A stretch of 64,000 nucleotides of DNA, from NCBI GenBank assembly GCA_963733095.1, contig CAVTBV010000013.1, positions 192,001 to 256,000 of the forward strand, in the 5' to 3' direction. Shown here piece by piece: positions 4,622-33,230 of the stretch (position 1 is its first letter; every line of letters starts with the position of its first letter). Under the pieces are notes generated by a model. That model made no database searches, had not been told where the DNA came from, and was given only the letters and a program-made list of their open reading frames with translations. A program made the position numbers and the translations under genes. The DNA is from Candidatus Bathyarchaeota archaeon. GTDB taxonomy: Archaea; Thermoproteota; Bathyarchaeia; Bathyarchaeales; Bathycorpusculaceae.

Positions 4622-5064
4622 GGTAGCAACCCAGCTTGCCTTGAAAACTCTGTTATTTCCTGTACCGTCTTGTTTTTGAAGTGGATTTTTATGTGAATAG
4701 AGTCATTTTGAGATATCCTTGCTGTGCCCAAAAAAGCGGATTGCTTGTCGAACCTTAGGTAAAGGTTGCCTTTTTCAAGGTGCAGTTTGATCTCGCTGTT
4801 TAGTTCTTCCTTATCAAGCGTACCTAGATCTTTTCCGATTTTCTCCACTGCGGTTGGGAGTAGTTTTTTGTCCATTAATTTAGCAGTGAAAAGAATGATG
4901 GGGTTCCCGTGGTGTCCCGTGCATGCCGTTTTTTCGAAAACAAGGGTTTGGGCCAGTTCTTCTGGCAACAAATTTTGTACGGAGGTTTGAACTTTGGCGG
5001 GGTCTTCAGTTGCGTGAGCGAAGACGCGGATATCTATGTAGGCTATTGGCGGTTTAGTAGACAT
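4618..5064 (-). CDS. Predicted RNA-binding protein of the exosome/RNase P superoperon
   Basis: HATED, GHHGNPI, LYLRFDKQ motifs. Confidence 0.8.
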   Translation of the reverse strand: MSTKPPIAYIDIRVFAHATEDPAKVQTSVQNLLPEELAQTLVFEKTACTGHHGNPIILFTAKLMDKKLLPTAVEKIGKDLGTLDKEELNSEIKLHLEKGNLYLRFDKQSAFLGTARISQNDSIHIKIHFKNKTVQEITEFSRQAGLLP

Positions 5065-19769: not shown

Positions 19770-21126
19770 ATGGGTAAACTGTTTGGAAGCTCAGGCGTCA
19801 GAGGACTGGCAAACGTAGACTTAACACCTAACTTAGCGTGCAAGGTTGCTTCAGCAGTTGTAACTCATGCCAAAGCAAAAAGAGCTGTGGTCGCGCGTGA
19901 TACGCGGGTTTCAGGGGGGCATGCTTGTGGATGCTTTGGTTTCAGGCTTGGTTTCATGTGGAGCCGATGTTTTGGTTTTGGGTATGGTGCCGACGCCTGT
20001 TTTGGCTTATGTGGCTAAAGCGTTGGGTGCTGATGTTGGTTTTATGCTAACGGCTTCCCATAATCCACCCCAGTACAATGGCATCAAAGTGTTCAAAGCC
20101 GATCTATCGTACACCGATGCAGACCAAGATGCTGTTGAAAAAATAGTGGCTGAAGAAACCTTTGCTTTTTCGGATTGGCAAACCCTCGGAAAAGCCTCAT
20201 CCGCAGATGCAAGTCAGATTTATTTGAATATGGTGCAACAAGCAGTTTGCTTACAGAAGCACTGGAAAGTTGTCGTAGATCCAGGATGCGGCGCAGCTTT
20301 CAATGTTGCTCCTCAAATGCTCAAAACCTTAGGTTGCAAGGTAACCGCTTTTAATGCGCAGCCAGACGGTTTTTTCCCAGCAAGAAAATCTGAACCCACC
20401 GCCGAATCCCTACAAGACCTCGCAAAAACAGTGAAAGCCCTCGGCGCCGACATCGGCATAGCCTTTGATGGTGACGCTGACCGAGTCGCATTCGTCGATG
20501 AAAACGGGGTTTTTGTGAATTTTGACCGATCTTTGGCGGCTTATGGTGCTTTGGCTTTGAAGCGAAATGGCGGCGGAACCGTCGTAACCAACGTGGAAGC
20601 ATCGATGTGTGTGGAAACGATGGCAAGAAAATATGGCGGCAAAGTTCTCCGAACCAAAGTAGGCGATATATACGTTTCCGAAGCCATCAAACGAGACGGC
20701 GCGGTTTTCGGCGGAGAACCATGCGGCGCTTGGGTGCACCCTCAACTCCACCTTTGCCCTGATGGGCCACTTTCTGCAGCCCTGTTCTTGGCGGCTTTGG
20801 AAGAAGAAGGCAAAAGCGTTTCTGGGTTCATGGGTGAAGTTCCCGAGTACATTACACTGCGGGAGAACATCGCCTGCAGAAATGAACAAAAATATAAAAT
20901 TGTTGAAAACCTCGAAGTTTCCCTAAAAGCCACGTTCCCAACATACACCGATTTCTCCAAGGTGGATGGCACACGATTAGCCCTAAAGAATGGCTGGCTC
21001 CTTGTTCGAGCATCAGGTACCGAACCTCTCGTCCGCCTAACAGTTGAAGGCGAATCAGTTGATTCGGCAAAAGATATAACCCAAAAGGCAACAGCACTAA
21101 TACACAAACAAACAGAGGCACAATGA
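19770..21126 (+). CDS. glmM: Phosphoglucosamine mutase (+1 frameshift in G6 run at 19914-19919)
   Basis: KLFGSSGVRG, TASHNP, FDGDADR, GGEPCG, RASGTEP; adjacent to glmU. Confidence 0.85.
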
Positions 21127-21127
21127 C

Positions 21128-22408
21128 GTGAAAGCAGTTCTTTTAGCGGCGGGTGCGGGCGAAAGACTCATGCCCATAACAGCAACACGCCCAAAACACC
21201 TAATCAAAGTGGGCGGAAAACCGATTCTGCAGTTCTGTTTAGAAGCCGTTAAAAGAGCAGGAATAACTGAAACGATAATCGTCACCCATTACATGGGTGA
21301 ATCTATCCGCAGTTACTTTGGTGAAGGGAAAAAACTTGGTTTAAAGATCAATTATGTGGAGCAGAAAGAGATTTTGGGCACAGGAAACGCTGCTGAAGTA
21401 GCCGAACCCTATGTTGATGACGATTTCGTTTTGATTTATGGCGACTTACTTTTCGGTCAAGACGCAGTTAAAGACGTGTTAGCACAATTTAAGAAGAGAA
21501 AAACAGCCGCGGCCATGGCAGTAGTCCCAGTTGACCGACCAGAAAACTATGGCATAATCGAGCAAGACTCAGAAGGCAAAGTCAAACGCCTAGTTGAGAA
21601 ACCTTCGCCTGGAAAAGCACCTTCCAACCTGGCAAATGCAGGAATTTACGCTTTCTCAAAAGATGTCTTCAACAAAATCAAGCAGACCAAAGCCTCAGTC
21701 CGTGGAGAATGGGAACTCACCGACTCAATAACAATGCTCGCGGAGGAGGGCAAGACGGTTTTGGCAGCTCAGCTCTCGAAGGACGATTGGTTTGATGTGG
21801 GCAGGCCTTGGGATTTGCTTGATGCTAACAACTGGGCACTTAAACGTATGGATCACAAAGTTTTGGGCACAGTGGAGCAAGGTGCACACTTGATTGGTCC
21901 AGTTACTGTTTCAGAATCAGCTAGGGTCCGTTCCGGTGCTTACATCGAAGGACCTGTGTTCATCGACGAAGATGCCGATGTTGGTCCCAACTGCTATATT
22001 CGCTCTGGTACGAGTCTTGGTCAAAAAGTCCGCGTCGGAAACGCTTGCGAAATCAAAAACAGTATATTCATGGATGGCGCTCATGCGGGACATCTGTCTT
22101 ATGTTGGTGATAGCATCTTGGGTGAAAAATGTAACTTGGGCGCAGGGACGGTTATGGCTAACTTACGGTTTGATGATGGAAGGATCAAGATGACGGTTAA
22201 GGGCAGGGTTGTGGATACGGGAAGGCGGAAACTCGGTGCGGTTCTCGGGGACAACGTTAAGACGGGGGTTAAGTCATTGTTTATGCCCGGAGTGAAGGTT
22301 GGTGTTAACAGCTGGGTTGGGGCTAACTTTATGGTTGAACGAGACTTGCCAGCGGACTCAATTGCGTTGCTAAAGCAGAACAGCGAATTGAAGCAAAAAC
22401 AAAACTAA
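21128..22408 (+). CDS. glmU: Bifunctional sugar-1-phosphate nucleotidyltransferase/acetyltransferase (archaeal GlmU)
   Basis: LAAGAGERL..RPK, RGEWELTD, C-terminal hexapeptide repeats. Confidence 0.88.
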   Translation: MKAVLLAAGAGERLMPITATRPKHLIKVGGKPILQFCLEAVKRAGITETIIVTHYMGESIRSYFGEGKKLGLKINYVEQKEILGTGNAAEVAEPYVDDDFVLIYGDLLFGQDAVKDVLAQFKKRKTAAAMAVVPVDRPENYGIIEQDSEGKVKRLVEKPSPGKAPSNLANAGIYAFSKDVFNKIKQTKASVRGEWELTDSITMLAEEGKTVLAAQLSKDDWFDVGRPWDLLDANNWALKRMDHKVLGTVEQGAHLIGPVTVSESARVRSGAYIEGPVFIDEDADVGPNCYIRSGTSLGQKVRVGNACEIKNSIFMDGAHAGHLSYVGDSILGEKCNLGAGTVMANLRFDDGRIKMTVKGRVVDTGRRKLGAVLGDNVKTGVKSLFMPGVKVGVNSWVGANFMVERDLPADSIALLKQNSELKQKQN

Positions 22409-22511
22409 TTGTCTTTTGGGGTTTGTGCATTTCTGTTGTACTCGTAACTGTTGTATATTTAGTCTCAATAAACAATAAGTGGGGTTAAACCATGACCAAG
22501 AAGGTAATCCC

Positions 22512-23750
22512 TTGGAGACCTATAACCACCAAAAAAAGACATTCATACTATTAGTGATGCTATTAATAACGAGCTTATTCTTGGTCTTTCAAGTTAACCT
22601 TCCAAACAACCACGTTATAGCTTCGGGCGATATGGGCACACAAGTAGACGGAACAATAACCAGCGACACGACATGGAAAGCCGCAGACAGCCCCTACATT
22701 ATAACAAGTACAATAATAATCCCTGAAGACGTCAACCTGACAATCGAGCCAGGCGTAACAGTCACCGCTGAGTCCTCAGTAACCACAATGTTCCTAATCA
22801 ACGGAGCCATCACCGCCCACGGCAACCCAACAAATAAAATAACTTTTGATGGAAATGGCAACGCAACCTTCTTTAAAACAAACCACCTTGTATCTGAAGG
22901 ATTCGTAGACTTGGACTACTGCATCATAAAGAATGGGCAGAGTGCTTTTTGGTTCGACAACACTGGCTCTTTTAACCTGACCAACTCAGATTTAAGTGAC
23001 CTATCACAAGAATCCTATTTATGGTACCCATCTCAAGATACATACATTGAATTTAATACTTTCACGAATACTTCCGGCCTAAAAATAGCAACAGGTGATT
23101 ATTCTTCAAATTCTTCCGGAGTAGTTTATGTAAAATACAACCTTTTCATCAACAACCAAGGATACATAATTGACAACTTTGCAAGCTACGGATTAAGCAA
23201 AGCATACGTGAACAATAATTCTTTCATTGACACTTCTGGAATAATCTTAGAAGTAGAAAAAACTATGACCACGGCAGATATGGATGCTTCCCAAAACTAC
23301 TGGGGAACTACCGACACATCCGTTATTGATTCGATGATTTATGACAAAAATGATGATGCTTCTTGTTCAAGTTACATCAACTACTTACCATTGCTCGATA
23401 CACCTGACCCAGAAGTCCCGGTTGCGCCAACGCCTACACCATCTCCTACGCCAATTTCCACAAGCACACCTGAACCTACGCCTAACAATAGCCCCGACCC
23501 ATCCTCAAATCCATCAACTCCCAGCCCAACACCAACGACTACACCTACTACATCGCCTAATTCCCTAACTTCAGATCCATCATCCAACCCAACCACCAAT
23601 CCCAGCACAGCAGCCTACCAAGGCACAAATCCATCAGCCACACCCACTATTCCCGAGTTTTCGCCCATAGCAGTATTGTTGATTTTGATTGTTGCTGGGT
23701 CGGCAATTGGAATAACATTGCGCAAAAAGATCGCTAAATTTTCTCTTTAA
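22512..23750 (+). CDS. Secreted surface protein: beta-helix-like domain, P/T/S linker, PEF-CTERM-like tail
   Basis: Signal peptide, TTW..ADSPY, NYWG, IPEFS followed by TM and basic RKK. Confidence 0.8.
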   Translation: METYNHQKKTFILLVMLLITSLFLVFQVNLPNNHVIASGDMGTQVDGTITSDTTWKAADSPYIITSTIIIPEDVNLTIEPGVTVTAESSVTTMFLINGAITAHGNPTNKITFDGNGNATFFKTNHLVSEGFVDLDYCIIKNGQSAFWFDNTGSFNLTNSDLSDLSQESYLWYPSQDTYIEFNTFTNTSGLKIATGDYSSNSSGVVYVKYNLFINNQGYIIDNFASYGLSKAYVNNNSFIDTSGIILEVEKTMTTADMDASQNYWGTTDTSVIDSMIYDKNDDASCSSYINYLPLLDTPDPEVPVAPTPTPSPTPISTSTPEPTPNNSPDPSSNPSTPSPTPTTTPTTSPNSLTSDPSSNPTTNPSTAAYQGTNPSATPTIPEFSPIAVLLILIVAGSAIGITLRKKIAKFSL

Positions 23751-23785
23751 ACAGCAGGAATTAAGTTATCCACATGTATTAGTGC

Positions 23786-24380
23786 CTAAGCTAAGTAGGG
23801 AATTTATGCGCTTTGTTCGTTTCATGTATTCAATGTAACTGTTGCCCAATTCGTTTATGAGGACTTTTTCTTCGACAAATATCCTTAACCATAGACTAAG
23901 ACAAAGATTGCAACTTCTACAAGTGCTGCTGCCCAAGACTGAACTGCCAACCCCATCCCAAAGATAAAAACCAGAACACCCGGTGTACGACGGATGCCTT
24001 ATTAATCGGTAGGGTCCCGACTACACGACTTTATGTTCTGCTTGAACCCCTATTATGCCGGAGAAGCATCTGCCAAGCACAGCGATTGCCCATTGCCTAA
24101 CCCCAATTCCCATAACCTTGGCTGCGATGCCAATATAGTCCATCCAGTCAGGTAACAGAGCAAAACCTGCCTTGGCAAAGACTACAGGGAAAGCTAAAAC
24201 TGCGATCCAAGAAATGAATACAATTGTGTTTGAGCCTATATTTCTCCGTTGCACCCTCGCACCGCTTCGTTTTATCCATGGAATAATGACTCCTCCAATT
24301 TATTCGCACACAAAAAAAGCGACCAAAGTAATCACAAACCCTGCAGCAGTATAGTCTGAAGTGAAGATGATTGAAGGCAT
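23786..24380 (-). pseudogene. Isoprenylcysteine carboxylmethyltransferase family pseudogene
   Basis: HKVV*SGPYRLIRHPSYTG and RIFVEEK..LG..Y.EYMKRT motifs; in-frame TAA and TAG plus frameshifts. Confidence 0.8.
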
Positions 24381-24674
24381 GTTATCAAATGTATGACAAG
24401 AAACCAGACCTTTATTAATATCTACTAAAATTCCGCGTTCAAAAGCCTAAAATGTTCGAGAAAACAACGAAAAAGACCTAAATTCCGTACCCAGAGGTCG
24501 AAGGGAGCGTCTAATCGCCCTCTTTTTTGGTTCCATTTAAATCAAAGATAAATAGCCAATTCCACCGATTGAGCTAATGCTTGTTTTCATCTTTCATTAC
24601 CACTTAACTCTATGAAGGTATTCCCTCAAGAACTCCGATTGCAGTTAAGAAATAGAAAAATCCTCAATGTTGGT

Positions 24675-24743
24675 ACACCTCAGGTAGCGAGTATTCCTCC
24701 CTATAGGGTACCCCCCCTTGCACCCAAGGACTCTGTTTTTGCA
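24675..24743. repeat. Palindromic repeat copy 1 (left arm truncated)
   Basis: ACACCTCAGGTAGCGAGTA...CCCTATAGGG...AAGGACTCTGTTTTTGCA. Confidence 0.85.
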
Positions 24744-24856
24744 CCTTAAGAACGCTTCAAAAGAAATATGGACCGTTGAAAGCTTATTTCTAGTTTGCGA
24801 CATGAACTTCAAAGTTTAAAAGAAAGCCCGCTTTTCTACTAATAGGTGATTTTAAT

Positions 24857-25174
24857 TTGGTTTTAATCAGGAAAGCTACTTTCCATTTTAAAAAAGGAAA
24901 ACGTGAAGAGGGTTTCGCAGAGTTAGACCTAATACTTAACAAAGAGGCGCGAAATGCAAAAGGTTTCCGAGGTTTTGTTTCAATGCTCTCAAAAGATTCA
25001 GAAAATGAAGCATTAATCATGACGTTTTGGGAAGATGAATTGGCACTCACCATGTCAGAAGGTCAAATTCTATCACCTGCGATTAGGAAGGTCTTGAATA
25101 CATTAGAAAAAGAACCTAATGTGGAACATTTCAAGCTATACTCAACAGAAATGTATACACGAAGAGCACCCTGA
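24857..25174 (+). CDS. Antibiotic biosynthesis monooxygenase (ABM)-like protein
   Basis: K.GKREE, KGF.G, TFWE pattern; SD AGGTGA. Confidence 0.75.
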   Translation: MVLIRKATFHFKKGKREEGFAELDLILNKEARNAKGFRGFVSMLSKDSENEALIMTFWEDELALTMSEGQILSPAIRKVLNTLEKEPNVEHFKLYSTEMYTRRAP

Positions 25175-25249
25175 AAAAACTTGTTTCCCACCCCAACTAA
25201 GAATAGTGTTCTAGGAAAATAGTTGCATTCACCTTCAGACGAGTTTAAA

Positions 25250-25320
25250 GCAAAAACACCTCAGGTAGCGAGTACATCTCCCTGAAAATACCCCTCTCCC
25301 AAGCAAGAAGTCTGTCTTGC
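25250..25320. repeat. Palindromic repeat copy 2 (71 bp)
   Basis: GCAAAAACACCTCAGGTAGCGAGTAC...CAAGCAAG..TCTGTCTTGC. Confidence 0.85.
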
Positions 25321-25369
25321 AATAAACAAGATATTTAAGATGAAATTTGCTATTAGGCGATTGTTAACC

Positions 25370-25921
25370 TTAGTTTAGTTCGTTTATGTTTGTGTCTTTA
25401 AGGCTAAATTCTATATGGTAAGTTTGATCTTCGAAAGCTGTAGTATAGACAATTCTAAGGGGCCACAAAATAACTTTGTCAATGTAGTAGGTTGCGTTTA
25501 TTGCTTGGTTGGTGTAATCGTAGGCTATGCACTCTCGGGTTCCAATGCTTCTCAAGGTTATTTTCGTGTTGTAGGTTCCTGCAAGAGTTTCACCTTTAGG
25601 CTGAAAGGTAATGTTTGTTTTATTGACCCATAAAGTAGTTTGGTCGGTTAATGTTGGCGCAAAAGATGTGACAATTGATGAGTTAGTTTGGATTTGCACA
25701 TGGGTGGCGTTTAAGTCAGTAACTTGCATTGTTTCATTTATGCTAACTGGTATTGAAAGGGCGTCTATTTGGCCTTCGTAATTCGCGTAAGCCCCTTTAA
25801 ACATCCAAGACTCAGCCATATTTTGCTGGATACTATCTATAAATTGGCATCCGATAATCAAAACTAATGATGAAATGGCTAAAACAATAATGAACCCGAC
25901 AATTATCCAACTCTTTCCCAT
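25370..25921 (-). CDS. Membrane-anchored/secreted hypothetical protein
   Basis: N-terminal TM, WMFKGAYANY, ends LKDTNI. Confidence 0.75.
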   Translation of the reverse strand: MGKSWIIVGFIIVLAISSLVLIIGCQFIDSIQQNMAESWMFKGAYANYEGQIDALSIPVSINETMQVTDLNATHVQIQTNSSIVTSFAPTLTDQTTLWVNKTNITFQPKGETLAGTYNTKITLRSIGTRECIAYDYTNQAINATYYIDKVILWPLRIVYTTAFEDQTYHIEFSLKDTNINELN

Positions 25922-26076
25922 GCTTAGCTACAGAATGTATTGCGATAAAAGGATTATTATTTTTGATGATTTTCAGCTGTTAATTTATTGTAACAGACCT
26001 TTTAAAAGGAATTACTGGAATTACCCTATGTCTGCACAAGAGTAATCAGAAAGCACTAAAGACAAGCTTTAATCTG

Positions 26077-26280
26077 CTACCGCTGTTGTTTCCTTAGCAA
26101 ACCTCTATACCTTGCAGAACACCGCAAACATCTTTTCTGGTCAGCTGGGATTTTACTCCATTCAGGAGTTTTAGAACGCGCCTTAAGTGCTCTCTTGCAA
26201 TCACAACAATAATACTTTACTGCTTTTTCTCTAATCCCAAAAACCTGCAAGTATACATCTCCATGCGAATATTTTTCAAT
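26077..26280 (-). CDS. Small basic zinc-ribbon protein (not in the ORF track)
   Basis: IEKYSHGDVY...YYCCDCKR...KRCLRCSARYRG..., 67 codons; ATT after AAGGTAG, or internal TTG. Confidence 0.55.
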   Translation of the reverse strand: MEKYSHGDVYLQVFGIREKAVKYYCCDCKRALKARSKTPEWSKIPADQKRCLRCSARYRGLLRKQQR

Positions 26281-26311
26281 TTAGCTACCTTATTTATTAA
26301 TAATTGTCGGG

Positions 26312-26382
26312 GCAAAAACACCTCAGGTAGCGAGTACGCCTCCCTTTAGGGCACTCTCGTTTCAAGCAAGGACTGTTTTTGC
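26312..26382. repeat. Palindromic repeat copy 3 (71 bp, best preserved)
   Basis: GCAAAAACA CCT CAGGTAGCGAGTACGCCTCCCTTTAGGGCACTCTCG...AGG AC TGTTTTTGC; perfect 9-bp terminal inverted repeat. Confidence 0.9.
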
Positions 26383-26401
26383 AAAACCATAGAATAATAT
26401 G

Positions 26402-26848
26402 TTATGAATCCGTCTTTTTGGAAGTTGGCAGTTTAAGAACATGTACACTTACACCCACTGCAACAGCTAGCATTGCAATCTGAATTGGGAAAACAAGATT
26501 TGAAGGCAAAAGACGTCCTAGGAAGAATACCATTGAGGTGCCGATTGTAATCCACAGAACTGATAGAGTTGTTATCTTTGTTTTAAGTCCTAACCCTTTG
26601 CTTTCTTTGTAGTTTCTTATATAGCTTCCAAACCATCGATTGTTCAGTAACCAAGAATACATTCTATCAGAGCTTTTGCAGAAACAAGCAGCAGTAGCCA
26701 GAAGAAAAGGCGTAGTCGGCAATATCGGCAACACTATACCTAAAACCCCAAAACTCAAACAAATCAAACCAGCAACCAACCATAAACCTCTGACAAGCTT
26801 ATGCTTATTCCTCTTTGATTGCATAGTCTGGATTAAACCACTGTTCAT
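26402..26848 (-). CDS. YbaN/DUF454 family membrane protein
   Basis: GVLGIVLPILPTTPFLL, WLLNNRWFG.YI. Confidence 0.9.
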   Translation of the reverse strand: MNSGLIQTMQSKRNKHKLVRGLWLVAGLICLSFGVLGIVLPILPTTPFLLATAACFCKSSDRMYSWLLNNRWFGSYIRNYKESKGLGLKTKITTLSVLWITIGTSMVFFLGRLLPSNLVFPIQIAMLAVAVGVSVHVLKLPTSKKTDS

Positions 26849-26869
26849 AAATAAAAATGATGATGTGCC

Positions 26870-26913
26870 GACAAAAAGATTCTCCTCTCACACCTAAGGA
26901 CTCTGTTTTTGCA
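26870..26913. repeat. Palindromic repeat copy 4 (internally deleted)
   Basis: Right arm AAGGACTCTGTTTTTGCA identical to copy 1; degenerate left arm ACAAAAAGA. Confidence 0.7.
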
Positions 26914-27036
26914 TTACAAGCTGTTATCGCAAAATTAAGAAAGTAGCATCGCCCCGATACTTGTAGAGAATTGTTGGAAGCGAGCAACCACAAGGGTTGC
27001 CGCCGACTGATTATCTAAATCCCATTTCATAAATAG

Positions 27037-27591
27037 CTAAAACAAATGCTCAATTAAAATCCGTAACCCAATCAAAATCAATATTATGCCGCCTAGAATT
27101 TTTACGCGACTGCCAAAAAGCTTACCTATAGTGCAACCGAAAAAGAAGCCAATAATCGTGAGCCCAAAAGTTATACCCCCGATTATGAGTATAGGTTTAA
27201 GAATAGATGTTTGAAGAAAAGCAAAACTCAAACCAACCATGAGAGCATCGATACTCGTTGCAACAGCCAAAGTCAAAACAGAACTTAGTTTTACGGTTTC
27301 CTCTTGTTTTCCGTTATCTTTCTTTGCAGCGTCATAAATCATTTTAGTGCCAATGAGAGTTAGAAGCCCAAACGCAATCCAATGGTCAACGCCCATTATA
27401 ATATCTTTCAATCTAAGACCAGCAAACCAACCTATCACGGGCATTAACATCTGAAAGCCGCCAAAGAAAGATGCAAGTATTAGTGCAGTTTTTCGCCTGC
27501 TATAGGTTACAGTAATTCCCTTCGCTATAGAAACTGCAAAGGCATCCATAGCTAACCCGACTGCAATAAGGACAATAGTGAGTAAATCCAT
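27037..27591 (-). CDS. mntP: Manganese efflux pump MntP family
   Basis: GLAMDAFAVS, DHWIAF, ATSIDAL. Confidence 0.92.
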   Translation of the reverse strand: MDLLTIVLIAVGLAMDAFAVSIAKGITVTYSRRKTALILASFFGGFQMLMPVIGWFAGLRLKDIIMGVDHWIAFGLLTLIGTKMIYDAAKKDNGKQEETVKLSSVLTLAVATSIDALMVGLSFAFLQTSILKPILIIGGITFGLTIIGFFFGCTIGKLFGSRVKILGGIILILIGLRILIEHLF

Positions 27592-28062
27592 TAATCTGCC
27601 ACTTTTTAACTTGAGCCGCTATTTAGATTATAAGAAAAATAAAGGTATTGTGCTCGGTAGGTAAATATTTTTTCGCATATGCCAAGGGCCTTTCATTCTA
27701 AAAACTTATTACTAAAACCATACAATAGTTGATATCAGTAATTTAGTCCCAGAAAAATTACTTTGCCCTAAGGCGGGAACTTTGAATAGCTAACTTAGCC
27801 AACCGACAAATCACAAACATAGCCTTACCTTTTCACCATTGTCTGCATTAATTTAAATCAACTTTCAAAAGTCCAACAGCATTATTAAGGTTTTGTAGAC
27901 TTGGCTCCAACAAGAGAATTGAGACATTTTTGCCGATTTCAAATGAAAAGACACCCAAAACTAATTGATCATAGTAATAGTTGATGTGTCCTTTTCCCTG
28001 AATTTACCGTTAGGAAGTTATCCATAACTAAAAGGGTGGATTAAAAATTAATTTAAAAAAAT

Positions 28063-28275
28063 CTATGGCTTTGAAACAGTCAAGTAGTTGTGGGTCATTT
28101 TGCATGACAGTGCTCTTTTTCTTACAAATTGTGCAATTGCGAAACGGTCATAATCGCCTCTAATCTGCAATTGATATCCTTCTGGTTCATTGTGTTCAAT
28201 AAGAACTAATCGGGGATTGACAAGATTGTTAGATCCTAATTCATTTAATAAAACTGTTGCCTCTTCCTTTTTCAT
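28063..28275 (-). CDS. Small hypothetical protein, paralog of 32101-32319
   Basis: MKKEEATVLLNEL.SNNLV...KP; ATG at 28275. Confidence 0.7.
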   Translation of the reverse strand: MKKEEATVLLNELGSNNLVNPRLVLIEHNEPEGYQLQIRGDYDRFAIAQFVRKRALSCKMTHNYLTVSKP

Positions 28276-28625
28276 GTGCTTTTCCACCACGTCGACTATG
28301 CGCCGTACAAGATTAAGATTATGCGGTTGAATCAAAAAAACTAACGAATTGATTCTCAACTCGAATTGGAGGAAAAAAATTCACAGTGAAGTTAAATGTC
28401 CATCGTTCAGTTGGATTGAATGAGTTGGTTATTTGTGATGGCAGCCGTTTTGGCAAACTAATCCGAACAATAAAGGAAAAATGGAAAGTACCGAGAAATT
28501 GTAAAGCTAAACTGGAGACTTAAAATCCCTTGAGCTTTTTGTACACATTTTGTAAAGGTTGAAATGTTTTTTCAGTGTAGCTTTTAAGCATGTTCCGTTA
28601 ACTAACATTGGAGAAGGTTTACAGT

Positions 28626-30197
28626 TTGAAGAGAATATGGACTGCTGTATTAGCAGTACTTCTGTTCAGTTCTTTAGCATTCACATTAACTCCACAAACA
28701 GGAAGTGGAGCAAACGAATATACAATTTTGTGGACCAACATCTATGGCAATCCAGTAAACCAAACCTGCTATGACCTATTACAAACTAGCGATGGAGGCT
28801 ACGTTTTGCAATCATCAAATAGCTCATTTCTGTATGGCCAACCCGTTTCCACACAACAAGCGTTAGCTCTCAAGACTGATTCTTCTGGAAATTTGCTTTG
28901 GACTAAGAGTCTCCCTGCGGGTAATTATCGAGGATTAGATGGTTTTGGCATAATTCAGACGTCAGATGATGGGTTAGTTTTTGGTTATAATTCTGGCGCA
29001 CCCCAAACGGTCATGTGTTCTATAATAAAAACAGGCGGTGATGGAAACCTGATTGGGCAAAACACAACTGCTTATTGTGCTGCTAATTTTCTTAGTCAAT
29101 CAATTGATGGCGGATTAATTTATGGAGGGTACTTTTGGATTTCTGGGTTGGTAACTTATCCTTGGCTAAACAAGACTGGTTCTTCGGGCAATCCAATATG
29201 GGAAAAAACATACACAAGCTACAATACATCAGCAGACGGTTCACGGCTTAACAGCATATCTCAATTTAACGACGGAGGATACGCTTTATTTGGACAAAGC
29301 GCTGGGCCGAATGGGTTACTAATTAAAATAGATTCCAACGGGAATGAACTCTGGTATAAAATATACACAATTTTCAAGAACTTCGGCTCATCCATTGCCA
29401 CTACTGATGGTGGTTTCTTAGTTTCCAACGAACCAGGTCTAACTGTTTCAAGCGGTCTACCGGGACTTGTTAAGCTTGATTCTTCTGGAAACATTCAATG
29501 GAACCAAACATATGGAATCAATATTTCTTCATTTGTTCAGACAGATGATGACGGCTATCTTGTTATAGGAGGTAACACCCTATTGAAGTTGGATTCTTCA
29601 GGAAACAGTCAGTGGTCTTACTCATTTACAGGCTCAAGCCTTTCAAGCATAATTAAAAGCAATGACGGAAATTATGCAATCGCAGGAAGCTACTCAAGTG
29701 GAGCAAATACTTACTCGTGGCTAACAAAGATTTCTTTGACGCCAACTCCTACACCCACACCCAGTCCAAGTCCTACGCCAACGCCTTCTCCATCTCCGTC
29801 ACCAAGCCCTACGCCTACATTTTCGCCCAGTCCTACTCCAACAATCTCTCCAACTCCAACGCCAACACCTTCTCCGTCACCAAGCCCTACGCCTGCATTT
29901 TCGCCCAGTCCTACTCCAACAATCTCTGCAACGCCTTCGCCTTCTCCAACACCCTCCGGTACTCCTACGACGACCGTAACATCAACACCTAGTCAAGAAC
30001 CAGCGACAACAATGTCGCCAACATCAACATTCATTCCAACCCCGGTGCCTCCCACCTCAACAACAGAAACAATCAATCCAACAGGCATACCCCAAGGCGT
30101 AACATATGGAATAATAGTCGTAGCATTCGTAGCATTAACCGCCTTAGCAGTGTTATTTCTGAGGTTGAGGAAAAAATCAGTAGCTACCGTCAATTAA
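28626..30197 (+). CDS. Secreted surface protein with beta-propeller-like repeats, P/T/S linker and C-terminal TM
   Basis: Repeated QT.DGG(Y) / K.DSSGN..W motifs; IPQ followed by TM and RLRKK. Confidence 0.85.
29793..29927 (+). repeat. 57-bp direct repeat (period 78 bp) in the linker
   Basis: 29793-29849 and 29871-29927 differ at one base. Confidence 0.85.
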
Positions 30198-30282
30198 GCT
30201 TATTTTTAATTCAGATTCAAACGTCGTAAACCATACTAACTTGAACGCTAAAGAATGATGACCTGACGCAACAACGTCTGAA

Positions 30283-30522
30283 GTGCATAGTATGTCCGCA
30301 GGTTATCGAGACGCTTTCCACGTCGTCGGAATTTCAACACTAATAGGCTCCGTACTGATGATGAGCTGGATATTCTACGACATATCAACACAAGGATACT
30401 TCATTATAGGCGAAAACAACCCTTTCATTAGATGCATAGAAAGCGGACTAGTTGGTTTCAGTGTTATCTACGTATTTTACTTGTTTGCAATGTTTGTGAA
30501 GAAGAAAAACGTAACCCTTTAG
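30283..30522 (+). CDS. Small two-TM membrane protein
   Basis: Two hydrophobic segments, basic C-terminus. Confidence 0.55.
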   Translation: MHSMSAGYRDAFHVVGISTLIGSVLMMSWIFYDISTQGYFIIGENNPFIRCIESGLVGFSVIYVFYLFAMFVKKKNVTL

Positions 30523-30654
30523 GAATTGTACTCGTTGCCTGAGGTGTTTTGTTTGAGAATTGTTTATCCGTTGTTCAGTTGTGGGTGTGGACACATGATT
30601 AATAATGCTTATTAAGACATAAGACACACGATGTTCTAACGAGGGGGATAAAAT

Positions 30655-31113
30655 ACGCAAAAAATAAAACTCTCCGTCACAGCATCAATACTAGCTTTAG
30701 TTCTAATAGCCACAGTTTTAACAGTCACAACTTTTGCAGCTATAACCACATCTCAAAACCTGTCATCCAATGGCAGAATCTCCACATCAGCAAACTTGGG
30801 GGTCTATTCCAACAGCGCCTGCACCACACCATTAACCACCATAAATTGGGGGAATTTAACCGCCGGAGCAACCATCAACCAAACAATATACATTAAAAAC
30901 ATCGGTAGCGGGCTCTCACTTGCTTTAAGCATGGGGACTACAAGCTGGACTCCAGCAAGCGCAAACGGGCCAATTACCTTAACATGGAATCAAGAAGGCA
31001 CAAGACTAAATCCGAACCAATCAGTAGCCGCAACCCTGACACTGACAGTTTCCTCAGGTATAAATGACGTTACAAACTTCAGTGTACAAATAAACATCGC
31101 CGGCACAAACTAA
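30655..31113 (+). CDS. Small secreted beta-sandwich-like protein
   Basis: Frame is open from ACG 30655, adding a signal peptide (QKIKLSVTASILALVLIA...) to the 30796 ORF; INWG.L, IYIKN.G. Confidence 0.7.
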   Translation, partial: TQKIKLSVTASILALVLIATVLTVTTFAAITTSQNLSSNGRISTSANLGVYSNSACTTPLTTINWGNLTAGATINQTIYIKNIGSGLSLALSMGTTSWTPASANGPITLTWNQEGTRLNPNQSVAATLTLTVSSGINDVTNFSVQINIAGTN

Positions 31114-31465
31114 ACAAAAATTCCTACCCTTTTTCATTTAACTTATCTAAATTTTCTTGTTTTGAATTCACGCCCCTTTTACGATTGCAGAAAAATTGTT
31201 AAGCATACTCTTCTGCAAGTTGTTTTTGACATTCAGCCCAAAGTATGCTTGATGCAAAAACAGAGCCACTAATTATAACAATTATAACTAGACGGAATGG
31301 TAATAGTTTTAAGCTGTTTGACGGACTTGGGCAGACATTTTGACCTAATTGGCATTTGTATTATTAACTAAGGCAAAGCTGGAGTTCCGGGAAAATTTGA
31401 ACAAAGAACAATAATGCCAAATACTTTAAGAGCTAAAAGAACCAATATTCTTTTGGGGAGTTATT

Positions 31466-31795
31466 GTGCAAATAAGCAAAGCCTTATTTGATTTACTCGA
31501 TGCCCTCAAAGAAAGCGTTATCGCTTTAGATTCAGAAATGAACATTACTTATGTCAATAATTCACAGGCTGCCATTTTAGACAGTAAGCCAGCTCAAATA
31601 ATTGGAAAGAACATTTACGAAATTGCTCCACAAATCGCCGAAAAAATTCTTAATCAGAAAATTCTTAAAACAATCACCAGACAAGAAATTACAAGCGTCG
31701 AATGGTAAAGTGGTTACAATACTGACTTATGGCGAACAACCATTTTCCCTACAGATGATGGCATAGCAATGATAAGCCGTACGGTTAGAAGTTAG
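31466..31795 (+). pseudogene. Stand-alone PAS-domain protein with in-frame TAA
   Basis: ALD....ITYVN, IIGKNIYE; after the TAA at 31706-31708 the same frame continues with WRTTIFPTDDGIAMISR. Confidence 0.7.
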
Positions 31796-32100
31796 AGAAT
31801 AAAAATAAGTGAAATGCATCAACCAACTCAAATGCCAAAGAGTACTCTCTAAAAGTTTATAACTAGAAGCAACGATACAACATAGGACTCAAAATGAGTG
31901 AAGAAACAACTGGTAAAAAAATACTTTGCCCTAAGGCTGGGACGGCGACATCATCCCATAAGGAATCAACATAGTCCCACTGCTTAGGTTTTGTTCCTTA
32001 GTAACTGAGCACCCGACGTTAATGTTGCACTACTCGCGCCCATACTATGTTTTTACACTACAAGTCTGTAGAGGAGGAAAGCTATGTTTGAAGCTGTCAA

Positions 32101-32319
32101 TCACGGCTTAAAAATAATGCAAAAACCTTTTTCGTTATTTTCTTCCATTGCCAAGTTGCGGTTTTGAAGAAATGTGGCTAATAAGGAACGTTCGCAATAT
32201 CCTTTAAATTTTAGCTCGAAGCTGTCAGGCTTCCTTTTCTCAAGTGATAGCCAATTTGTTTGAATCAAATTATTACCAACCAACTCCCTCACAAGAGCCA
32301 CCGCTTGTTCCCTTCTCAT
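32101..32319 (-). CDS. Small hypothetical protein, paralog of 28063-28275
   Basis: MRREQAVALVREL.GNNLI...KP; ATG at 32319. Confidence 0.7.
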   Translation of the reverse strand: MRREQAVALVRELVGNNLIQTNWLSLEKRKPDSFELKFKGYCERSLLATFLQNRNLAMEENNEKGFCIIFKP

Positions 32320-32454
32320 GTTTTCCCTTCCCAAATCCTTGAAAATCGAACAAATCTAATAACCCTTTAGTGCTTCCAAACAGTTTAGAGCTTGAAACCC
32401 AGTTGAGCTGTTTTAATCACAAAGACTACAATATTTTTCATCGAGTGGGCAGTG

Positions 32455-32684
32455 CTATATTTGCTCGCTTACGTTTTGCTCTTTCAATTGCGGTATTTTC
32501 CGCTTGTTCAAGTTATAGTAATTTGTCATCCTAAAGTTTCATACAATTGGTCTGTTTCTTCCAAGGTTGGAACCCAATTTGCTTCCCCTGTCTCTGCGTC
32601 AATCCTAAAATTAGTTGTTGGCTGAAACCTAACCAATAGTTTTAAACGCCTATCAGGGAAACGCTTAAGTTCAAACCTTGTCAT
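32455..32684 (-). pseudogene. Small hypothetical gene, possibly frameshifted
   Basis: MTRFELKRFPDRRLKLLVRFQP...WVPTLEE (32684-32526) plus an overlapping shifted tail to 32455. Confidence 0.35.
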
Positions 32685-32840
32685 TTAAGTCACTAATACG
32701 TTTTTGTAGCGAGGCGTCTTAAATTTTTATTTCTTCTTGATCAACAATAGTAGCCATTCCCATCTTAGGATAACTAGCATAAAAAAAAGCTAAGTTACCT
32801 GACCTGAAAAGCCTTTAATGACTGCCCAAATAGGACTAAA

Positions 32841-33230
32841 TTAAAGGTCTTTGAGAGTTTCGTTAATTCGTTCAAGTTCTTCTTTTCTTTTTCTTTCCAA
32901 CTCAAGAAGGGTTTTTTCTTCAAGCAACTCCTCGGCTTTCTTTCTGTTATAACCATCATTTGCTTGCTGTATGTATTTGTCCATCCACTCAACATTAGCC
33001 TTAATATCAGACTCAAATGATACAAAAATAATGGTGCCGTTTTCTACAAATACGCTGCTGGGATGTACTCCACTAGCCGCATTAGATAATGGGTGCCTAA
33101 AATAGTCTTGAACCCAAATATAGTCAGGATAGCCATTAAGAGAAATTTCAACAGTGAGGAACCCGTTTACATCTTTGGCTTTGACTCTAGGTGGTCCAAC
33201 CCGTTTAAACTCCGCTTTTTCATTGCTCAT
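32841..33230 (-). CDS. Hypothetical protein with C-terminal coiled coil
   Basis: ~129-aa ORF, charged helical C-terminus. Confidence 0.7.
   Translation of the reverse strand: MSNEKAEFKRVGPPRVKAKDVNGFLTVEISLNGYPDYIWVQDYFRHPLSNAASGVHPSSVFVENGTIIFVSFESDIKANVEWMDKYIQQANDGYNRKKAEELLEEKTLLELERKRKEELERINETLKDL

Follow-up and report, generated by a model that had tools for sequence, protein, structure and literature searches.

Integrons are the textbook gene-capture system. Their attC sites are imperfect hairpins. The base of the hairpin carries two conserved boxes, R'' (RYYYAAC) and R' (GTTRRRY); extrahelical bases are conserved and determine the polarity of the site, and the apical part varies. 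Integron cassettes are mostly single promoterless ORFs that lie in one orientation behind a common promoter. The integrase IntI, a tyrosine recombinase with an IntI-specific extra domain, adjoins both the attI site and the array; circles with a single site are excised, and the integrase inserts them at attI. Where attC sites are clustered with no integrase, the term CALIN is used. SCC composite islands grow by tandem accretion at one attachment site under a serine recombinase. In the pdif modules of Acinetobacter plasmids, which depend on Xer/dif, the 28-bp sites alternate in orientation. MITEs carry terminal inverted repeats and a target-site duplication, are dispersed in either orientation, and have an autonomous partner with the same ends. 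The archaeal integrons reported so far are only of the canonical IntI/attC kind (Ghaly et al., 2022; PMC9668308, apart from its attC-cluster tables), and no description of arrays such as those below in Bathyarchaeia was found in the literature searched, taken within the same limits. The arrays analysed here share much of the layout of integrons and are not canonical integrons.

We analysed a stretch of 64,000 nucleotides (the window) on contig C13 of the genome termed G000, whose host genus consists of wetland archaea of the Bathyarchaeia. An imperfect palindrome, termed R, occurs on the + strand of the window between positions 24667 and 26913, in three full copies and once as a 3' half. The covariance model and nhmmer bear out the preliminary description in the number and the common orientation of these copies; the length of the unit is corrected from about 71 bp to 76-79 nt. 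Copy 1 (24667..24746, +; cmsearch 76.2 bits) is the first site of the array, copy 2 (25248..25325, +; 55.3 bits) is degraded in its apical hairpin and at its 3' end, copy 3 (26310..26386, +; 71.7 bits) has a complete terminal inverted repeat, and copy 4 (26876..26913, +; nhmmer, model positions 37-74) consists of the 3' arm only. Copies 1-3 do share an identical core, as first described: the 19-mer ACACCTCAGGTAGCGAGTA is exact at 24675, 25256 and 26318, always on the + strand, and the 18-mer AAGGACTCTGTTTTTGCA, a 3' motif of R, is exact at 24726 and, in copy 4, at 26896. The 19-mer also occurs with 2 mismatches at 30529-30547 on the - strand (chance expectation 0.01 matches), within an inverted partial R that comprises only the 5' arm and the apical hairpin (30514..30553, -; nhmmer model positions 5-41) and that had been overlooked. 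The terminal inverted repeat GCAAAAACA/TGTTTTTGC stands for copy 3 and needs qualification elsewhere, being degraded in copy 2 (TGTCTTGC) and lacking its left arm in copy 1, where flank sequence takes the place of GCAAAA and the counterpart left end reads GTTGGTACA. Copy 1 has an orthologue in the relative G010, where it is the sole copy on contig C1; the left flank is common to both, and the identity to G010 is 83%. The ends of R, GCAAAAAC... and ...TGTTTTTGC, contain AAC and GTT with A- and T-runs in place of YYY and RRR; the attC consensus is absent, as had been noted.

No Rfam covariance model matched the R copies at E values up to 5 (window 22000-33000). R was considered as coding sequence, and a + frame TPQVAS..PP.R does run through some copies; this was rejected on account of stops in copy 2 and in the C13 copy and of indels between copies. 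An origin of R as a tRNA-derived attachment site was also rejected, as the window holds no tRNA and R is unlike the tRNA-Arg that neighbours one array locus elsewhere. The GC content of the array region is 36-41%, against 42.7% for contig C13.

The hairpin of R is conserved across species. RNAalifold on 24 aligned copies gave only 3 pairs; the long hairpin was drawn by hand and then tested on the cross-species alignment of these copies, where 82.7% of its 573 pair cells were paired compared to 27-48% with the partners slid. The observed percentage was reached by 0 of 500 shuffles, and the observed 15 doubly changed cells by 1 of 500. A long inner helix, CCTCAGGT.AGCGAG with CTCGC.ACCTAAGG, which had escaped the preliminary description, is intact in copy 1 and most relatives and broken in window copies 2 and 3. 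Both of these copies have chimeric arms (5' arm of type A, 3' arm of type B), and the inner helix of copy 3 is broken because of this chimerism. In the type-B subfamily, AGGT/ACCT is changed to GCTT/AAGC on both arms, a set of compensatory changes. Folding copies 1-3 singly gave inconsistent structures with modest z-scores of -1.5 to -3.0, copies 2 and 3 being the chimeric-armed ones. The inner CCC-N4-GGG hairpin was found in copies 1 and 3, as described before. The apical hairpin is variable, and versions with other sequences exist, whereas a bulged A in the 5' arm (column 20) and ACTC in the 3' arm (columns 64-67) are each at least 90% conserved. A C/A mismatch that is fixed would pair as a T-G wobble if the bottom strand folds; the numbers of wobble pairs (28 for the top strand, 35 for the bottom) do not tell which strand does so. 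The stem is followed by a T5 run on both strands, and one terminator-like match lies inside copy 1. Overall, R copies are about 75-85% alike with a 20-nt block identical across species; in 4 of the 24 aligned copies the left terminal repeat is absent and the rest of the element is kept.

The genes between the copies in the window are unrelated to each other in family, and the Pfam models agree with the earlier calls of ABM, YbaN and mntP. Copies 1 and 2 enclose a 105-aa ABM-domain protein (24857..25174, +; PF03992, 29.3 bits, above the cut-off). Between copies 2 and 3 are a membrane-anchored or secreted protein of 183 aa (25370..25921, -; no Pfam family above the cut-off) and a zinc-ribbon-like cassette ORF of 57 aa (26077..26250, -). 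A 148-aa DUF454 (YbaN-like) membrane protein (26402..26848, -; PF04304, 119 bits) occupies the interval between copies 3 and 4; it had been said to fill this interval to within about 20 bp on each side, and it leaves 16 nt on the copy 3 side and about 28 nt on the copy 4 side. The 184-aa MntP manganese exporter (27037..27591, -; PF02659, 162 bits), in the block absent from G010, is followed by a 449-bp module (27907..28355, no strand assigned) that contains a 98-aa ORF (28063-28359, -), is 98% identical to positions 491510-491957 of the same contig, and is the last segment before homology to G010 resumes at 28558. No R was found at 28558, the right end of the array, and the segment with mntP and the 98-aa ORF therefore lacks an R on one side.

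The R family is restricted to one Bathyarchaeia genus, in which it was found in 63 of 119 other genomes at 1-6 copies each; G000 has 5 copies that are full and 5 that are partial. Rather than being scattered singly in random orientation, the copies are clustered and co-oriented: in the genus-wide listing of 120 genomes, 22 of 23 neighbouring R pairs within 10 kb have the same orientation. All matches fell on a single strand in 17 of 17 sources with at least two covariance-model matches (49 matches), many of these sources having been chosen from co-oriented clusters already seen, such that only the additional weaker matches are new; three new metagenome contigs had more than one copy, and on all three the copies were co-oriented. 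Widely separated copies on one contig differ in strand, which shows that co-orientation is not a replichore-wide bias. Inverted partial copies, namely the one in the window and one each at loci L033 and L037, count against a site-specific model. R is intergenic. Next to it on either flank are 21 genes on the - and 20 on the + strand; at its 3' side, - strand genes end at a distance of 2-60 nt, and genes on the + strand start about 100-130 nt past it, a spacing that looks like the genes' own promoter regions. The modules span 0.5-4 kb and hold 1-5 unrelated ORFs, often several, and the arrays, which include those on G010:C9 and G141:C9, are short, with 1-5 sites. Other short conserved non-coding modules also occur in the arrays: a conserved element termed E2, an element of about 85 nt and a 59-mer.

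Comparison of relatives revealed that gene content and order change at R. In G010:C1, the orthologue of copy 1 is followed directly by a PQQ-like gene, and the 3.8 kb of cassettes at 24746-28558 of the window are absent. In G023, the repeat Ra is a hybrid, with a left flank like that of R2 in G010 and a right flank like that of R3; a 1.9-kb module of five ORFs that lies between R2 and R3 in G010 is missing from G023. Relative to R, the orientation of three modules (X, Y and Z) is constant and their order differs between three genomes, reading X-R-Y-R-Z in G125, R-Z-...-R-Y-R-X in G141 and R-Z-R'-...-Y on contig C14 of G000, and their homology begins within 4 nt of the R start. The PQQ gene is 91% identical between G000 and G010 compared to 78% for core genes, and between G010 and G125 the identity is 95% for a block made up of R and a 128-aa gene, compared to 73% for the recombinase gene described below; by these comparisons, the modules are more alike between species than core genes are. 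Gain or loss of a cassette with a hybrid repeat and permuted order are compatible with a shuffling array.

Synteny of the bracketed genes is not kept in relatives, as seen in G010 and in the nine contexts of the secreted-protein gene. This 183-aa gene is a module of about 650 bp with its own promoter region that recurs in nine other genomes at 81-91% identity with different flanks in each, and R is near in only two of the nine, indicating that genes also move without R. The 57-aa ORF followed by a repeat is found again in G022:C5 (L058; 82% identity, with R 72 nt further on). Of the two observations named beforehand as refuting it, scattered copies and synteny in relatives, neither was made. 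The earlier proposal of a gene-capture or shuffling array is upheld for the variation in content and order at R, and is weaker at the right end, which has no R, and for the recombination itself, which is deduced from comparisons between genomes. No circles or deletion joints were seen in the low-depth contigs of three runs that cover part of the stretch. A joint from 25271 to 26884 reported in the reads was considered as a deletion and ruled out, as it is another R copy with a different apical hairpin; likewise, loose ends at 25244/25248, 26309 and 26912 in low-depth read contigs represent the repeat in other contexts.

A candidate enzyme was found at a conserved locus, termed locus A, where the order in many relatives is a NosD-like gene, E2, a tyrosine recombinase gene, variable DNA, R, and DUF996/PadR genes, with the recombinase upstream of R on the same strand; one example is the 315-aa ORF at G010:C9:100384-101328. 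In the window, E2 lies at 31851..31992 (+). Elsewhere E2 stands just upstream of the recombinase gene and also inside arrays, always co-oriented with R (20 of 20 matches on the R strand), and of 25 distinct E2 copies, 5 are followed by R at a distance of 84-245 nt. The recombinase gene or pieces of it are held by 9 of 19 array loci, and every full-length gene or large piece is upstream on the R strand. Orthologues of the G010 recombinase are present in 26 genomes, in 10 of which R lies 0.3-6.7 kb downstream on the same strand. Six further locus-A loci have the recombinase-then-R order, the gene being full-length in five and reduced to an N-terminal fragment in one (L082); at a seventh, G000's own (L074), the recombinase is missing. 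Among recombinase-bearing contigs from metagenome and genome-contig scans, 9 of 10 show the order, some of them duplicating earlier loci. These recombinase-R pairs belong mostly to one orthologous locus and are therefore not independent observations. Several findings count against the link: 16 of the 26 orthologue-bearing genomes have no R near the recombinase, and ten of these 16 have no R at all; G000 has R and no orthologue of the G010 recombinase; at G000:C14 and L086 the recombinase is downstream of R on the opposite strand; and at locus A, variable DNA lies between the recombinase and the first R with no bounding R.

The array-associated tyrosine recombinase is neither IntI nor XerA. With the integron-integrase model TIGR02249, the G000 C14 recombinase scored 19.8 bits (cut-off 265) and the G010 recombinase gave no match; the XerA model NF040815 gave 35.5 and 41.9 bits (cut-off 220). 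A sequence search of solved structures with the recombinase returned no real match, and no attI-like site was identified beside it. At L033 and L037, the recombinase gene breaks off near codon 57, with R about 25 nt further on. Splitting of the gene by its own site, as in SSV-type elements, was considered for these two loci and not adopted, as intact genes contain no R-like stretch and simple gene decay is seen in other locus-A genomes. The preliminary description had placed the recombinase outside the window; the window indeed contains no recombinase gene, and the link to a recombinase elsewhere draws largely on the one orthologous locus.

These arrays have several features in common with integrons and CALINs. 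In both, co-oriented imperfect-hairpin sites alternate with small unrelated modules, the sites are more alike within than between lineages, extrahelical bases are conserved and the apical hairpin varies, the same modules occur in different orders, some arrays have no integrase nearby, and a tyrosine recombinase stands at one end of a conserved platform, here in relatives. In contrast to integrons, R has no RYYYAAC/GTTRRRY boxes, the R-associated recombinase falls far short of the integrase model (19.8 bits) and points towards the array rather than away from it, genes lie on both strands at the ~100-130 nt spacing and often in multi-gene modules, and the arrays are short (1-5 sites), that of the window having no site at its right end. 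Like pdif modules, R modules swap contexts between short recombinase sites with the enzyme encoded elsewhere; unlike pdif sites, R sites are 76 nt long and co-oriented, and the recombinase reaches 42 bits where the XerA cut-off is 220.

We see an even chance that crossover takes place at R within a conservative site-specific recombination system, by which small gene modules are inserted, removed and put in a different order. Alternatively, R may be a passive intergenic hairpin, a bidirectional terminator or an mRNA-stabilising structure, that was spread by some route, with the cassette differences arising by homologous recombination or slippage between 76-nt direct repeats. We consider this unlikely, although it would suit the position of R between genes with - strand genes ending close to its 3' side, the hairpin with T5 on both strands, the terminator-like match in copy 1, the lack of any recombinase within 98 kb of the window's array, and the presence of E2, the ~85-nt element and the 59-mer, as in bacterial mosaic intergenic repeats; the hybrid repeat of G023 is equally well explained by homologous deletion. 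However, homologous recombination accounts for losses and not for the co-orientation of 22 of 23 neighbours, and it leaves the reordering of X, Y and Z with kept orientation unexplained. At only about 75-85% likeness, R copies are poor substrates for homologous exchange, terminators need neither the cross-species identical 20-nt block nor the conserved bulges, and with genes of either strand about equally frequent beside it, R has no tie to gene 3' ends.

A further explanation is that larger integrative elements, each with its own tyrosine integrase, inserted one after another at a single hot spot; R would be the scar of their attachment site, and the cassettes their decayed remnants. Such tandem accretion would be SCC-like, and R arrays do resemble SCC-type islands in that direct attachment-site repeats separate recombinase-less modules at a hot spot, with a recombinase in trans or at one end. 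The many co-oriented remnants of the recombinase-upstream region (E2), the N-terminal gene fragments, the truncation just before R at L033 and L037, the R that follows E2 in 5 of 25 copies, the one array locus that adjoins a tRNA-Arg(CCT) gene and the 20 matches in G000 to the tyrosine-recombinase family PF00589 all fit it. We nevertheless hold it to be unlikely as well: no R-to-R unit with an intact recombinase was found among the loci read, R gave 0 matches on viral contigs, the modules are only 0.5-4 kb with 1-5 unrelated genes, and the same small modules recur intact in differing orders. Moreover, R lies outside tRNA genes, and intact recombinase genes have no R-like stretch. In comparison with SCC-type islands, the site here is a hairpin of 76 nt that derives neither from a tRNA nor from a gene end, the candidate enzyme is a tyrosine rather than a serine recombinase, and the modules are permuted between genomes. 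We judge it very improbable that a transposase mobilises R, as it would if R were a miniature inverted-repeat transposable element (MITE) or a REP-like element. R shares with MITEs and REP/BIME mosaics its small, palindromic, intergenic form, its terminal inverted repeats, its confinement here to one genus and its combination with other short motifs. Unlike them, it has no target-site duplication (among the 12 copies whose ends are clear, none shows flanks that match), is low in copy number, shows strict local co-orientation and keeps the remainder of the element in the 4 copies without the left terminal repeat; no longer element with the ends of R was seen among the loci read, and the Y1 (RAYT-type) transposase family PF01797 had 0 matches in G000 (95% complete), with the control matched in 6 of 14 genomes.

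Under conservative site-specific recombination at R, a resident R would sit at a fixed chromosomal place and a circular module with one R would recombine with it to give R-module-R in direct orientation. Repeated insertion would build co-oriented arrays, and recombination between two R copies would remove a module and leave a hybrid R. The asymmetries of the hairpin (bulged A, ACTC and the fixed C/A mismatch) may set the polarity of the site. The catalyst would most likely be a lineage-specific tyrosine recombinase acting in trans, and the window's array would be recombinase-less and CALIN-like, with modules that carry their own promoters on either strand. Both the site-specificity and the identity of the recombinase we infer from sequence comparison and gene position, and the site may act either folded, as single-stranded DNA, or as duplex. 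By pattern, there are four chimeric A/B sites, 3 of them in G000, and no B/A sites; this counts against the site-specific model, as reciprocal exchange at the site centre would not predict such an asymmetry.

More tentatively, and with less confidence than in site-specific recombination as such, the arrays may represent an integron analogue of one Bathyarchaeia genus that evolved independently of IntI and attC, in which a lineage-specific tyrosine recombinase and a 76-nt folded site would capture, stack and reorder promoter-bearing modules in either orientation at several chromosomal hot spots, with exchange between species. If so, cassette capture would have evolved more than once, and the arrays would offer a handle on accessory-gene exchange among abundant uncultured sediment and peat archaea as well as a recombinase with its site as a new pair for testing. 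Software that relies on attC and IntI models would be expected to miss R arrays. The cargo of the arrays seen here includes membrane transporters, sensors and small secreted proteins.

R is an imperfect palindromic repeat of 76-79 nt, and its copies in the window were located by motif, covariance-model and nhmmer searches. The 19-mer ACACCTCAGGTAGCGAGTA was found exactly at 24675, 25256 and 26318 on the + strand, and with two mismatches at 30529 on the - strand (chance expectation, 0.01 matches), and the 3' motif AAGGACTCTGTTTTTGCA was exact at 24726 and 26896. The covariance model placed three full copies on the + strand, at 24667-24746 (copy 1), 25248-25325 (copy 2) and 26310-26386 (copy 3); nhmmer added a 3' half at 26876-26913 (copy 4), also on the + strand, and a 5' half at 30514-30549 on the strand opposite to copies 1-4. 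The genes that the preliminary description had named between the copies were borne out, namely ABM, a membrane-anchored 183-aa protein with a 57-aa zinc-ribbon-like ORF, DUF454/YbaN and MntP. The DUF454/YbaN gene fills the interval between its flanking copies. The G+C content of 24-34 kb is 36-41%, against 44-52% in the flanks and 42.7% for contig C13, which holds the window.

Across the window's own genome, G000 (2.84 Mb, 16 contigs, 95% complete), nhmmer detected five full and five partial copies in five places: the window, C14:6068 with a co-oriented half copy at C14:7659, C13:444432, and partial copies on C12 and C3. BLAST detected R in 15 of the 36 further genus members searched and in none of 24 genomes from eleven other families of the same order; the covariance model, applied to 119 other genomes of the genus, found it in 63, at one to six matches per genome. 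An exact two-motif pattern matched 14 contigs among 185,579 species genomes, 13 of them labelled as Bathyarchaeota or Bathyarchaeia MAGs and one, of 5.4 kb, as Acidoferrum. The same pattern matched 27 metagenome contigs and none of the viral contigs scanned. The Acidoferrum record (5391 nt, labelled an Acidobacteriota MAG) is identical to contig C94 of the genus genome G009 and carries two R copies; its taxon label or binning looks wrong.

Neighbouring copies of R share one orientation. In the genus-wide covariance-model listing, 22 of 23 pairs no more than 10 kb apart were co-oriented (the exception lies on G130:C5), and among 18 fetched array loci all 17 sources with at least two model matches had these on a single strand (49 matches), a count that takes in weak matches that played no part in locus choice; both counts include orthologous loci and are not independent. 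Three new multi-copy metagenome contigs were likewise co-oriented. The exceptions seen are partial copies: in the window the inverted 5' half, and in the closely related L033 and L037 a 3' half that lies inverted some 2 kb away from the array. Where copies on the same contig are separated by tens of kilobases, their strands often disagree; the local co-orientation is therefore not a replication-strand effect.

Gene content and order at R were compared between genomes. In a BLAST of a 12-kb stretch of the window against 80 genus genomes, the two genes left of the array (20000-22400) were found everywhere, at 66-79% identity. In G010 they are followed by an orthologue of copy 1 with a shared left flank, likewise without the GCAAAA arm, and, about 36 nt past it, by the sequence that lies upstream of the PQQ-like gene and starts at 28558 in the window (91% identity); G010 therefore lacks window 24746-28558, which holds all of the array modules. 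No R was found at the right junction of the window array. At another locus G010 has four R copies and G023 has two, and the first copy in G023 combines the left flank of the second G010 copy with the right flank of the third, between which G010 carries a 1.9-kb module of five ORFs. Modules X (a 126-aa gene), Y (two small genes) and Z (a CPA2 antiporter) differ in order among three genomes and keep their orientation relative to R: R'-X-R-Y-R-Z in G125, R-Z-R...R-Y-R-X in G141 and R-Z-R'-(174-aa gene)-Y on G000:C14. The homology of Z begins within 4 nt of the R start in all three, and in G000 it stops where the next half copy of R starts. The modules are more similar across species than are the core genes (91% versus 78% for G000 and G010); between G010 and G125, a block of a 128-aa gene plus R is 95% identical and the recombinase gene 73%.

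The structure of R was read from an alignment of 24 copies. The outer helix pairs GCAAAAACA with TGTTTTTGC, with four extra bases (ACTC) on the 3' side; then come a helix CCT.AGGT / ACCT.AGG with a fixed C/A mismatch, a single bulged A, a helix GCGAG / CTCGC and an apical CCC-N4-GGG hairpin, which in some copies is swapped for other self-complementary sequences. Standard pairs make up 82.7% of 573 cells, compared with 27-48% when the partners are slid by 1-3 columns; the observed percentage was matched in 0 of 500 shuffles, and the 15 doubly changed cells in 1 of 500. These double changes come mostly from a type-B subfamily (GCTT/AAGC, against AGGT/ACCT in the majority type A) and may represent a single inherited event. 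Window copies 2 and 3 and the C14 copy join a type-A 5' arm to a type-B 3' arm, so that their inner helix is broken. Typing of the arms by pattern in 76 distinct copies gave 24 AA, 4 BB, 4 AB and 0 BA, the remainder being partial or too diverged for typing. Wobble counts over the pairs did not indicate the folding strand, RNAalifold alone did not recover the hairpin, and R had no match in Rfam.

The candidate recombinase, 315 aa long, emerged from clustering the ORFs of the fetched loci and belongs to the phage-integrase family (PF00589, 30.9 bits). It is very divergent, scoring 35-42 bits with the archaeal XerA model (cut-off 220); the integron-integrase model gave 19.8 bits for the G000 paralogue, against a cut-off of 265, and no match for the G010 protein, and no solved structure matched the candidate in sequence. 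The gene or pieces of it occur in 9 of 19 array loci, where full-length genes and large pieces all lie upstream of the array on the R strand and three small fragments run the other way. Of the 120 genomes, 26 encode an orthologue of the G010 protein (E up to 1e-40). In ten of them R lies downstream of the gene, on its strand, at a distance of 0.3-6.7 kb (only 267 nt in G004); the remaining 16 have no R nearby, and ten of the 16 lack R altogether. One platform recurs at seven further loci, in the order NosD-like gene, E2 (another conserved non-coding element), recombinase, variable DNA, at least one R, DUF996 and PadR; at this locus G000 has E2 and one R and lacks the recombinase. The same order was seen in nine of ten recombinase-bearing loci from two collection scans, some of which duplicate earlier loci. 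In G000, which has 20 PF00589 matches, the closest to the window array is 98 kb off, and three of the four other R places have a match within 10 kb, two of the three on the opposite strand. The positional counts indicate that the association of recombinase and R is real in position and polarity, yet it reflects mostly one orthologous locus and is not a strict co-occurrence.

Two further observations may bear on integration. In L033 and L037 (G126:C5 and G067:C6), the recombinase gene breaks off once about 57 codons have been read, and the first R of the array starts about 25 nt on. Some integrases are split by their own attachment site, and the arrangement recalls these; it may also be a simple deletion. 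In L073 (G000:C14), positions 4954-5014 (61 nt), 1 kb from the R array, are identical to part of a tRNA-Arg(CCT) gene called by ARAGORN in G124; ARAGORN made no such call in G000, for which an intron may be the reason. Contig C15 ends in 51 nt identical to C14:4924-4974, which means that the assembly is interrupted at this tRNA-Arg; such breaks happen at integration hot spots.

The arrays hold further short conserved non-coding pieces besides R. E2 lies at window 31851-31992 (+ strand; core about 31928-31957, CTGGGACGGCGACATCATCC, within a possible 8-bp hairpin) and reaches 93% identity across species. In relatives it precedes the start codon of the recombinase by about 20-70 nt, and it is also found within arrays, where a TATA-like box and a short ORF come before it. 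Each of the 20 E2 matches is co-oriented with R, and R follows within 84-245 nt in 5 of 25 distinct cores. A 37-nt stretch at 26018-26054 belongs to an element of about 85 nt; four other genomes carry it at 92-97% identity, at a distance of 49-69 nt from an R copy. A relative of it is present at G000:C14:5437-5530, and on contigs of two metagenome runs an exact match begins at 26017/26018. A 59-nt element with a small hairpin (26952-27010; 88-95% identical in G141, G125 and G010) begins 34-39 nt past an R copy in the window and G141, and in G010 and G125 lies at the left boundary of the block that contains the 128-aa gene and R (95% identical).

The best explanation of these data would be that R is the crossover site of a site-specific recombination served in trans by a tyrosine recombinase, and three other readings were weighed against it. 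R as a MITE or other transposable element fails: target duplications flank none of 12 copies with clear ends, copy number is low, orientation is directed, the left terminal repeat is missing in 4 of 24 copies, and the genome has no Y1 transposase. If R were a passive hairpin or terminator, with the differences between genomes arising by homologous recombination, the deletions would be accounted for, and the T5 runs past the stem on both strands and the - strand genes ending close to R would fit; this covers only part of the evidence, since both the orientation rule and the reordering of modules are left unexplained. Closest to the crossover-site reading is the serial integration of larger elements that left R behind, in keeping with the co-orientation of E2 remnants, the N-terminal recombinase fragments, the cut genes of L033 and L037 and the tRNA-Arg gene adjoining one array locus. 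However, no R-bounded unit with an intact recombinase was found in the loci read, and small modules reappear unbroken in differing orders.

The crossover-site reading invites comparison with a sedentary integron or CALIN (an attC cluster without integrase), which the arrays resemble in their structured, polar and co-oriented sites, swappable modules and tyrosine recombinase at a platform. R does not show the integron R-box consensus, no IntI enzyme was identified, and the arrays do not have the layout of promoterless cassettes in one orientation; the R system is therefore placed outside the integron/CALIN family. Genes adjoining R on either side show no strand preference (21 on -, 20 on +), and those on the + strand begin about 100-130 nt past R, a spacing suggestive of individual promoters. 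The 183-aa gene (25360-25973) forms a self-contained module of about 650 bp including its promoter region, which recurs in nine other genomes at 81-91% identity (core genes, 66-79%) with unrelated flanks each time, and with R nearby in only two of the nine. Genes on both strands, own-promoter spacing, this module that mostly recurs away from R and the extra non-coding pieces do not fit a simple cassette picture. Judging from the sequence comparisons, we give R an even chance of being a site-specific recombination site. The archaeal integrons described in PMC9668308 are canonical IntI/attC elements, and among the entries listed by literature searches none resembled the Bathyarchaeia R arrays.

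Repeats with a 24-nt period at window 23424-23467 and 29735-29968 lie within two surface-protein genes, encode Pro/Thr/Ser-rich linkers and are ordinary low-complexity coding sequence. Finally, a 449-bp stretch at 27907-28355, with a 98-aa ORF of no family, is 98% identical to G000:C13:491510-491957, with parts recurring at 84-91% identity in several other genomes; either it was duplicated recently within the genome, or it is one more mobile module.
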